In this document: positions 9,792 through 10,946 of the stretch, one piece after another | How positions within the stretch are numbered: the first letter of the stretch is position 1 | Layout of the letters: the number at the start of each line of letters is the position of its first letter | Origin: Candidatus Margulisiibacteriota bacterium | Lineage (GTDB): Bacteria; Margulisbacteria; Marinamargulisbacteria; JBFWNS01 | DNA length: 64,000 bases | Direction of reading: 5' to 3' | Assembly (NCBI GenBank): GCA_050250935.1 | Contig: JBFWNS010000003.1 | Span: 128,001-192,000, forward strand | The notes under the pieces: model-generated | The model's input: only the letters and a program-made list of their open reading frames with translations | The model's database searches: none | Told to the model about the DNA's origin: nothing | Program-made: the position numbers and the translations under genes

Positions 9792-10946
9792 TTAGCTATC
9801 TAGGCTGGATAATAACGCTTTTGCTTCTTCGATAACGGGAACAATAATAGCTAGGCCAGCGCCAATACGCCCTGCGCGCCAGCCTAATCCTTTTAAGAGT
9901 GCCAGAGGCCCCTCTTCTTTAACAATTTTATTGAACGCTTTGAGTGATTCTTTCAATTCGGCCAATAAGAAGTTCCTTTTCCAGGGTTCAGGGTTTGTCC
10001 TTGAAAGTTCTTGTAGAATGGTTTTAATTCGATTGAAGGGTTGGGTGATGGTGGCTGCGCCAAGTCCAGCAATGGCTCCACCCAGTGCGTTTCGGGTTGT
10101 TTGTGGATCTAGAAAAGGGACATAGTGTTGAAGGGTTGAATTTTGAATGGGTAGCCTTTTTCCAACCTCGGGTCCAAGAACGGCTGCGGCTGCCCCGTAG
10201 GGGATTTCTCTTCCTAGAATGGGGCCTACTCCCACTAAAAGTCCAGAGACACCTATGCGTTTGTATTGAGACCTCAGTGTGGTCCAGGCGGATACCTTTT
10301 TGTCCAGCAATTGCATGGTGTTGACCAATTCGCTGATTGTTGAAAACGCAGATCCGCCGACACCTGCAAAAAAGGCCGACGCAAGTTTCCATTGGGGTGT
10401 CATTGGCCTGTTGTCCTTGTATAAGGAGTCATGTAAATGCTCCACTGCATGTTGTGAAGCTTTAATGGCTGAAATATAAGCTGGGCGCAGTAAAAGTTGG
10501 ATAGGAAGTCCTCGGTAAAGCACCGAAATGCCTTCCTTTTTCACAATTTGAGGCATAGAAAGAGTGCGGTATTTTTCTAAAAGTCGGAGTGTTTGGAGAT
10601 TGTTGAATGGGGACCCTGTGGCTAAAAGTTCGGCTATACCCCCACATGATGCCGCGGCAACCGTGATGCTTAAAGGCGTTCTTCTGGTTTTTGAAGCTGG
10701 TGTGTTTGTAGGGATGCCAGCCGCTTCGAGGGCGTCGGCCTCTGTTCTGGTTAAAGGGTGGGGGTGTTTTAGATCAGCGTGATGAAGGGAAGGTGGTGGC
10801 GCAATGGGTGCCGGTGTCTTTGCGGGTGCTGGCGAAGCTGTGGGTGTAGGTGCTTTGTCTTTGGGTTGTCTAGACACTGCAACGGCGGTGCCAAGGGCTC
10901 CTACTGTTGCTACGGCTGCGGCCGTTCTTACTACTCTTGCTAACAT
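9792..10946 (-). CDS. Mitochondrial carrier family (SLC25-like) protein with presequence-like/Pro-rich N-terminal extension
   Basis: Three repeats: PFNNLQT..IVKKEGISVLYRG; ISELVNT..RIGVSGLLVG..REIPY; QPFNRIKT..IVKEEGPLALLKG..R; SD AAGGAG. Confidence 0.88.
   Translation of the reverse strand: MLARVVRTAAAVATVGALGTAVAVSRQPKDKAPTPTASPAPAKTPAPIAPPPSLHHADLKHPHPLTRTEADALEAAGIPTNTPASKTRRTPLSITVAAASCGGIAELLATGSPFNNLQTLRLLEKYRTLSMPQIVKKEGISVLYRGLPIQLLLRPAYISAIKASQHAVEHLHDSLYKDNRPMTPQWKLASAFFAGVGGSAFSTISELVNTMQLLDKKVSAWTTLRSQYKRIGVSGLLVGVGPILGREIPYGAAAAVLGPEVGKRLPIQNSTLQHYVPFLDPQTTRNALGGAIAGLGAATITQPFNRIKTILQELSRTNPEPWKRNFLLAELKESLKAFNKIVKEEGPLALLKGLGWRAGRIGAGLAIIVPVIEEAKALLSSLDS

Follow-up and report, generated by a model that had tools for sequence, protein, structure and literature searches.

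A gene at positions 9792 to 10946 (minus strand) of a 64,000-nucleotide (nt) stretch of contig JBFWNS010000003.1, from the genome of a Candidatus Margulisiibacteriota bacterium, encodes a protein of the mitochondrial carrier (SLC25) family. On balance, we read this protein as a type III-secreted effector that would enter the inner membrane of host mitochondria and work there as a weakly gated metabolite carrier. The Margulisbacteria form the sister phylum of the Cyanobacteria and are usually treated as free-living. The whole stretch of DNA analyzed is called the window below. A first-pass annotation of the same DNA had set two readings side by side, an effector inserted into host mitochondria and a carrier used in the bacterium's own membrane. 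The paralogues, the shared promoter motif, an export apparatus without flagellin, and leaders that are not strongly hydrophobic support the former; the latter fares less well and is kept because the Ala-rich leader of the studied carrier is moderately hydrophobic.

The product is a true SLC25-fold protein. The open reading frame (ORF) is uninterrupted and codes for 384 amino acids (aa), beginning with an 87-aa extension. The Pfam Mito_carr profile (PF00153) matches it over three stretches (E = 2.5e-22; 78.8 bits against a cutoff of 22.3), as the first-pass annotation had expected. An AlphaFold2 model of residues 87 to 384, made on a 24-row alignment of carriers from the same class, contains six long helices at a mean predicted local distance difference test score (pLDDT) of 90.8. 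Among at least 500 Foldseek matches, the 11 with an E value of 0.001 or lower were all mitochondrial carriers, led by UCP1 (E = 2.6e-7; TM score, 0.73). In the ESM Atlas, the TM score was 0.79. By model and alignment, repeat 1 (positions 10416 to 10676) comprises helices 91 to 122 and 147 to 175, repeat 2 (10152 to 10397) helices 184 to 215 and 240 to 263, and repeat 3 (9807 to 10100) helices 281 to 317 and 354 to 383, all on the minus strand. The carrier motifs that had been described for the second half of each repeat were found at residues 137 to 146, 230 to 239, and 344 to 353. The protein matches the SLC25_like family of Lpg1137 (PF18405) only weakly (E = 0.057; 12.9 bits against a cutoff of 34.5), and NCBIfam offers no model for it. 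Word-indexed homologue searches returned the carrier alone in one case and 10 proteins in another; the closest database matches are about 30% identical, and among those that bear a name are carriers from fungi and a protein from a Legionella sp.

The gene is no one-off but belongs to a class-wide set. Scans of named genomes with the carrier and with the neighboring Der protein gave no match; among named database proteins, Der matches Candidatus Margulisbacteria best (43%; E = 1e-110, versus 2e-93 for the next named phylum), and the class is presumably Marinamargulisbacteria. Its genome holds six divergent carrier genes, five of them with a Pfam E value of 0.001 or lower and the sixth at 0.003, which stand at scattered sites and share 12 to 20% identity. 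By Pfam, 24 of the 55 class genomes contain carriers, compared with none of the 91 other genomes of the phylum; a profile built from the class members themselves raised the former count to 27 and left the latter at 0 of 91, for a union of 28 genomes. These counts include many incomplete genomes and related ones that are not independent. Neighboring genes differed at every carrier locus inspected. Codon adaptation is low for all six paralogues (0 to 13th percentile), the studied carrier being the lowest.

Ahead of the gene, at positions 11011 to 11040 (minus strand), lies a bipartite sigma-28-like promoter motif made up of TGAAAT (11040 to 11035) and CCGATAAT (11018 to 11011). It scores 23.2 bits on a matrix that was trained without the carriers and applied to crude gene calls at a threshold of 14 bits. 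A sigma-70 scan found no promoter. Genome-wide, the spacing between TGCAA and CGATA peaks at 17 nt (30 sites, versus 1 to 10 at spacings other than 17 to 18), and 56 of the 69 seed sites are intergenic, versus 15.5% expected. The motif precedes 64 of 1,620 called genes, including the studied carrier and three of its five paralogues (P = 3e-5). In other genomes of the class it stands ahead of 4 of 43 carriers, compared with none of the 43 when the opposite strand is scored, and it occurs in 140 of the 146 phylum genomes, with 0 to 2 sites in the reversed control.

Most of the genes behind the motif have no recognizable family. In a Pfam scan of 63 of them, 40 had no match, whereas 39 of 42 other genes in the window had one. 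The 23 with a match include two Ser/Thr kinases, two PP2C proteins, an ADP-ribosyltransferase, an ABC1 kinase, proteins with Myb, Armadillo, F-box, and MORN domains, and the four carriers. Motif genes also have a low GC content at third codon positions (median, 0.44 versus 0.54), and 22 of the 64 carry an N-terminal K/R-x-[IVL]-[ASE] pattern, as do 56 of the 1,556 others, a difference whose P value is overstated because the pattern was drawn from those same genes. Compared with the sigma-28 (FliA) consensus, which we take to be TAAA-N15-GCCGATAA, the −10 box and the spacing fit, while the −35 box differs (TG[CA]AAT). Two FliA-like genes, both under the NCBIfam cutoff, lie within type III gene clusters, and 6 of 19 upstream regions of flagellin-family genes from relatives show, by eye, TAAAG with a similar −10 box and spacing. 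As a side observation, the form TG[CA]AAT...CGATAA marks about 64 mostly orphan or effector-like genes; L133 (C2:9740-11089 in genome G000), L140:2910-3824, L147:3218-4270, L157:3959-4969, and L145 are motif linked and represent, among them, an ADP-ribosyltransferase domain, three Myb repeats, Armadillo repeats, an F-box, and an M48 peptidase with an ABC1 kinase.

The genome carries the genes of a type III export apparatus: FlhA/B, FliP/Q/R/O/M/N, FliF/G/E/K, FlgG/A/H/I, and FliH/I/J-like genes. Flagellin and the hook cap protein FlgD were not found in it, and across the class FlhA is present in 49 of 55 genomes and flagellin in 1 of 55. By score, the core components are of the flagellar type (FlhA, 760 bits versus 642 for SctV), and the sole secretin, which resembles those of type II secretion systems and pili, lies outside the type III clusters. 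We regard the apparatus as a candidate phylum-wide, flagellum-derived injectisome. VirB4 (PF03135) was not found in this 95.85% complete genome, in a search that did not extend to the Dot/Icm type IVB genes, and neither was the type VI marker TssC. Because VirB4 was not found, delivery is likely to follow a type III route rather than the type IV route of the Legionella pneumophila carrier LncP.

The apparatus genes lie at C5:117578-139374, C1:313602-325032, and C1:411627-414366 of G000 (L038, L039, L043, and L045), loci that also hold the needle-like protein described below, a 108-aa neighbor, and three conserved orphans; a 595-aa orphan of these loci is present in 125 of the 146 phylum genomes. 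Unusual flagellar parts were noticed at L043:10238-11910, L089:4967-6442, and L044:1385-2029. Two FlgE/F/G-D1 proteins start with signal peptide-like leaders, and FliG is represented by two genes, one for a short N+M form and the other for an M+C form that has a long N-terminal fusion.

The candidate needle subunit is an 87-aa protein whose ESM Atlas language-model features reach 0.93 to type III needle clusters (PF09392), with 10 of its 10 best matches in the needle family or clan. It is present in 29 of the 55 class genomes, and divergent syntenic copies occur in five more. Two translocon or tip candidates (C7:11067 and C5:133864) had no Pfam match. In other classes of the phylum (L121, L122, and L119), large proteins with hydrophobic stretches are encoded upstream of needle-sized ORFs in a syntenic locus; by eye only, they resemble translocators.

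Taken together, the carrier is probably a secreted effector, and type III delivery, somewhat less certain, is still probable. One of the two FliA-like sigma factors would read the promoter motif and switch the gene on together with other effectors, and the motif genes would be late type III substrates. The protein would then be injected into a eukaryotic cell through the predicted type III needle of flagellar descent. LncP is a Dot/Icm type IV substrate for which mitochondrial location and ATP transport have been demonstrated (PMC3252375; see also PMC7542358), and by analogy with it, placement in mitochondria by the host's carrier import pathway seems rather more likely than a different fate.

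Several observations weigh against this reading. MotAB-like genes and the L and P rings are present, as a motor would need. A needle-profile match was obtained in only 14 of the 28 carrier genomes; divergent syntenic copies were later seen in G008, G028, G005, and G031. Pfam and PDB sequence searches with the needle-like protein came back blank and an Atlas structure search returned no needles, so that its identification as a putative needle subunit has a single source. The apparatus is found in 135 of 146 phylum genomes; as both it and the motif are phylum-wide, they do not explain why carriers are restricted to one class. The motif was not found ahead of this genome's type III structural genes, precedes just 1 of 21 needle-like genes, and at the same cutoff preceded none of the 19 flagellin-family genes from relatives that have flagella. 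The link between motif and secretion thus rests on the likeness to sigma-28 promoters. Furthermore, 2 of the 6 carriers in this genome lack the motif, as do, within 250 nt, 39 of the 43 carriers in other class genomes (some with uncertain start codons); a few motif genes are housekeeping genes (enolase, NuoF, and LepA), and 6 of the 64 encode hydrophobic leaders. The sequencing runs are labeled as landfill metagenome. Finally, both gates of the carrier are degenerate, and its leader could be a Sec signal.

The gates bear on what the protein would do once inserted. Canonical carriers have a matrix motif, Px[DE]xx[RK]xxxQ, on helices H1, H3, and H5 (PMC12410006). The studied carrier does not keep this form on the three helices: the motif positions hold P113, N115, and Q118 in repeat 1, I204, E206, and N209 in repeat 2, and P303, N305, K308, and Q312 in repeat 3, which leaves two of the six network charges. 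The Px(N)xxK-like motif of the first-pass annotation is accordingly complete in repeat 3 and degenerate in the other two. Under the pairing that we assume from the ADP/ATP carrier, E206-K308 is one intact bridge, and N115/N209 and N305/Q118 are amide pairs. With one of the three matrix-gate salt bridges remaining, transport may be leaky or lost; we lean slightly toward a leak or uniport of a charged metabolite. Class carriers average 3.7 of 6 matrix charges (n = 40), versus 5.5 of 6 in database matches (n = 123).

The cytoplasmic network, canonically [YF][DE]xx[RK] on H2, H4, and H6 (PMC12410006), has in-register charges on H6 only (I372-E373-x-x-K376) and no Tyr braces; E169 and E260/K263 are 1 to 2 residues out of register in alignment A3. 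The contact-point arginines are kept. Contact point I would be formed by R154 and K162, contact point II by R246-E247, and contact point III by R357/R360, with R246 invariant and R357 nearly invariant in alignment A3. An R-E pair at contact point II is, we assume, the pattern of amino acid carriers. The predicted cavity is rich in Arg and Lys, and with R246 and R357 the protein has the central site with a positive contact point III that is described for the family (PMC12410006).

In a rival reading, the secreted effector would be no inner membrane transporter at all and would instead form an open channel or scaffold in the mitochondrial outer membrane or in the membrane of the vacuole that encloses the bacterium, like the divergent MTCH1/2, SLC25A46, or Legionella protein Lpg1137. 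The loss of matrix charges here and across the class, the cytoplasmic motif that is clear on helix 6 only, and the missing tyrosines favor such a role, and the leader may resemble a signal anchor. Divergent outer membrane SLC25 members are named in PMC12410006, and Lpg1137 is a very distant carrier homologue (PMC5621508). What speaks for a transporter is that the contact-point arginines R246, R357, and R360 are retained and that the six-helix model is confident. In addition, under the assumed pairing, amide pairs take the place of the lost bridges beside the E206/K308 partners, which would fit a tuned gate rather than decay. We consider the nontransporter role unlikely, while giving it real weight.

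The leader is where the own-membrane reading has to be weighed. This reading holds that the carrier is inserted by Sec into the bacterial inner membrane and imports a host or environmental metabolite. The leader, residues 1 to 25 (positions 10872 to 10946, minus strand), is Arg/Ala rich and moderately hydrophobic, and it is followed by a Pro/Ala/Thr-rich linker (residues 26 to 87; 10686 to 10871, minus strand). As the first-pass annotation stated, the start is acid free, D30 being the first acidic residue. We compared leaders as the best 11-residue Kyte-Doolittle mean, with 2.3 as a heuristic cutoff for a signal peptide-like value, in the 27 of 49 class carriers that have an extension of at least 14 residues and a length of at least 250. 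None of the 27 reached 2.3, versus 93 of 433 genes of the genome. The class leaders are rich in Ser, Pro, and Thr (7.8 versus 4.8 per 25 residues; P = 1e-6), with no significant depletion of acidic residues (P = 0.09). The studied leader is of a second type, with a hydropathy of 1.79; among envelope proteins of the genome, two exceed the cutoff (2.79 and 3.2), and a TonB receptor with a long n-region has 1.71.

For Sec insertion speak the basic start, the Ala/Val/Gly stretch, and the A-V-A site of this leader, the Ala/Gly-rich stretches with which two other paralogues begin, and the description of such transporters in Babela (PMC4378268). The TLC nucleotide translocase was not found, in a search that was silent in controls too. 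On the other side, the leader stays below the cutoff, and its first 10 residues share 8 identities with the start of an unrelated orphan that has the same promoter motif (G000 C7:6099-6989) and continues with nonhydrophobic residues; despite the like N termini, the two genes diverge widely over their first 45 bases. The promoter motif groups the carrier with effector-like genes, neighbors differ at all inspected carrier loci, codon adaptation is low, and the terminal branches of class carriers are long (median, 1.67 versus 0.64). The leader could serve export or mitochondrial sorting and is less likely to serve Sec, and we hold the own-membrane reading to be quite improbable.

Presequence-like N termini (Arg/Ala/Ser rich and acid free over 30 to 55 residues) were also noticed in an ORF at window positions 28675 to 30246 (minus strand) and in three of G000, at C1:446313, C2:236938, and C1:77645 (all plus strand). 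The last encodes an HMG-CoA reductase, the other three ORFs had no Pfam match, and C2:236938 is divergent from a carrier paralogue. Searching other orphans for mitochondrial presequences yielded some suggestive but uncalibrated cases, which are not used as evidence.

It is also very unlikely that the gene, once captured from a eukaryote, is now a decaying relic without present function. It has the lowest codon adaptation of the six paralogues, no close homologue, and degenerate gates; against decay, the frame is intact, the fold, Shine-Dalgarno sequence, and promoter motif are retained, five more intact paralogues exist, and such divergence without stop codons implies selection. Eukaryotic contamination or chimeric assembly, suggested by an essentially eukaryotic family whose nearest ESM Atlas clusters are eukaryotic, is largely refuted and hardly credible: the gene lies among bacterial genes on a 250-kb contig and has a phylum-typical promoter motif, the genome (1.95 Mb) is 95.85% complete with 0.16% contamination, carriers are held by 28 of the 55 class genomes, a 54.9-kb public contig (not independent, because it possibly comes from the source sample) spans window positions 7500 to 13500 without joints or differing letters, and a contig of a second sample from the same study bridges the gshB-carrier junction (9750 to 9951). 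The first-pass annotation had been right to doubt such an artifact.

The origin of the class carriers was examined in a tree of 40 of the 49 class sequences and 123 of 149 database matches, which contains no known Ggc1. Constraining them to a single origin in FastTree cost only 12.8 log units (no formal test), and monophyly is therefore not rejected. One class carrier, L010, is plainly Ggc1-like (E = 1e-50, versus 8e-9 for its next match), whereas the studied carrier is not (E = 0.36 against Ggc1), which suggests that carriers were likely captured more than once. By eye, the studied carrier shares marks with a clade of the Legionella sp. protein and Phytophthora carriers, at a tree support of 0.13. 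Among other class carriers, L012 and L030 appear Ggc1-like as well, L026 and L009 look mitoferrin-like by eye from motifs we presume to be diagnostic, L015 is a tandem pair in G008, and L102 is a longer, 440-aa carrier in G018.

Among known bacterial carriers, which also include Llo1924 and others of Legionella longbeachae and two of Neorickettsia sennetsu (PMC3252375), the closest model is LncP, and the studied carrier likely works in a similar way, by analogy. Both are bacterial three-repeat, six-helix carriers from genomes with a delivery system, with a proposed action in host mitochondria. Compared with the published description of LncP, the Margulisbacteria carrier differs in its likely type III route, unrelated phylum, and six paralogues, as well as its 87-aa extension and degenerate matrix motifs. 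With eukaryotic SLC25 proteins such as UCP1, the ADP/ATP carrier, and Ggc1, it shares the fold, the three repeats, and the contact-point arginines, but local identity is about 30% at best, matrix charges are few, and no subfamily is supported. Like Lpg1137, an effector whose transport function is doubtful (PMC5621508), it is a highly divergent carrier-fold protein, although it is much closer to ordinary carriers. Divergent carriers are likewise found in host-associated bacteria such as Babela (Dependentiae; PMC4378268) and protist-dwelling alphaproteobacteria.

Flagellar basal bodies without filaments are found in, e.g., Buchnera. The apparatus resembles these and the nonflagellar injectisomes (SctF, PF09392) in having an export gate, an ATPase, and a needle-like subunit without flagellin; unlike injectisomes, its parts score as flagellar and it keeps L and P rings, a rod, and MotAB-like genes, and no translocon was identified. 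The study of Ruthmannia eludens, an intracellular relative, reports that no canonical secretion system is present, yet the 17 of 21 flagellar rows covered in its transcriptome table record expression of FliM, FliI, FlhA, FlgI, and a flagellar sigma factor, and the table never mentions flagellin or a mitochondrial carrier (PMC6784892). The terms "secretion" and "flagell" do not occur in the main text of PMC6349859, and the accessible part of 10.64898/2026.04.11.717937 deals with host carriers only. In the literature searched, which left most subscription journals and bioRxiv supplements outside, there was no report of Margulisbacteria carriers or an injectisome of theirs or of a type III-delivered carrier.

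The surroundings of the gene are bacterial, as the first-pass annotation had noted. Its Shine-Dalgarno sequence, AAGGAG (10957 to 10952, minus strand), lies where that annotation placed one, 5 nt ahead of the ATG. Both named neighbors are there: gshB (glutathione synthetase; 8861 to 9787, plus strand) is convergent, 4 bases off the carrier stop codon, and not cotranscribed, and the "TPR protein" is a divergent Methyltransf_28 plus TPR protein (11069 to 12643, plus strand; Pfam), with by-eye relatives at C1:311033 and C1:336677 of G000, near the basal body cluster. A link to glutathione was considered, as the top matches look SLC25A39/Mtm1-like by eye (by a pattern that we presume) and the gene abuts gshB; it was rejected because gshB is convergent and no other inspected carrier locus lies beside gsh genes. 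Elsewhere in the window, a trehalase with an Arg-rich N-terminal extension (62967 to 64000, plus strand; L087) runs past the edge, beside two orphan-like ORFs (59812 to 62864), one with a weak PfkB match. Also noted were an inward-rectifier potassium channel whose N terminus is Arg rich (L083:1422-2369) and a 938-aa ankyrin protein (L086:9904-12717).

If our reading is correct, the literature searched holds no earlier example of a mitochondrial carrier delivered by a type III system. Bacterial mitochondrial carriers have been described from a few intracellular bacteria, and only LncP is characterized in the literature covered; here, roughly half the genomes of a single class in an uncultured phylum carry them, as many as six each, and genomes of the other classes have none. 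They would serve as a genomic marker of eukaryote-associated life in a group of which a single intracellular member has been described, and the promoter motif singles out about 60 genes of this genome as candidate effectors. Such an apparatus would account for the way in which Ruthmannia eludens gains access to its host, a needle on a flagellar basal body would bear on the origin of injectisomes from flagella, and naturally weak-gated carriers could be used to test how SLC25 gating is modeled. More broadly, and only tentatively, the class may consist largely of symbionts or parasites of eukaryotes in which an independent, flagellum-derived injectisome and a sigma-28-like regulon deliver repeatedly captured carriers that re-plumb host mitochondria.

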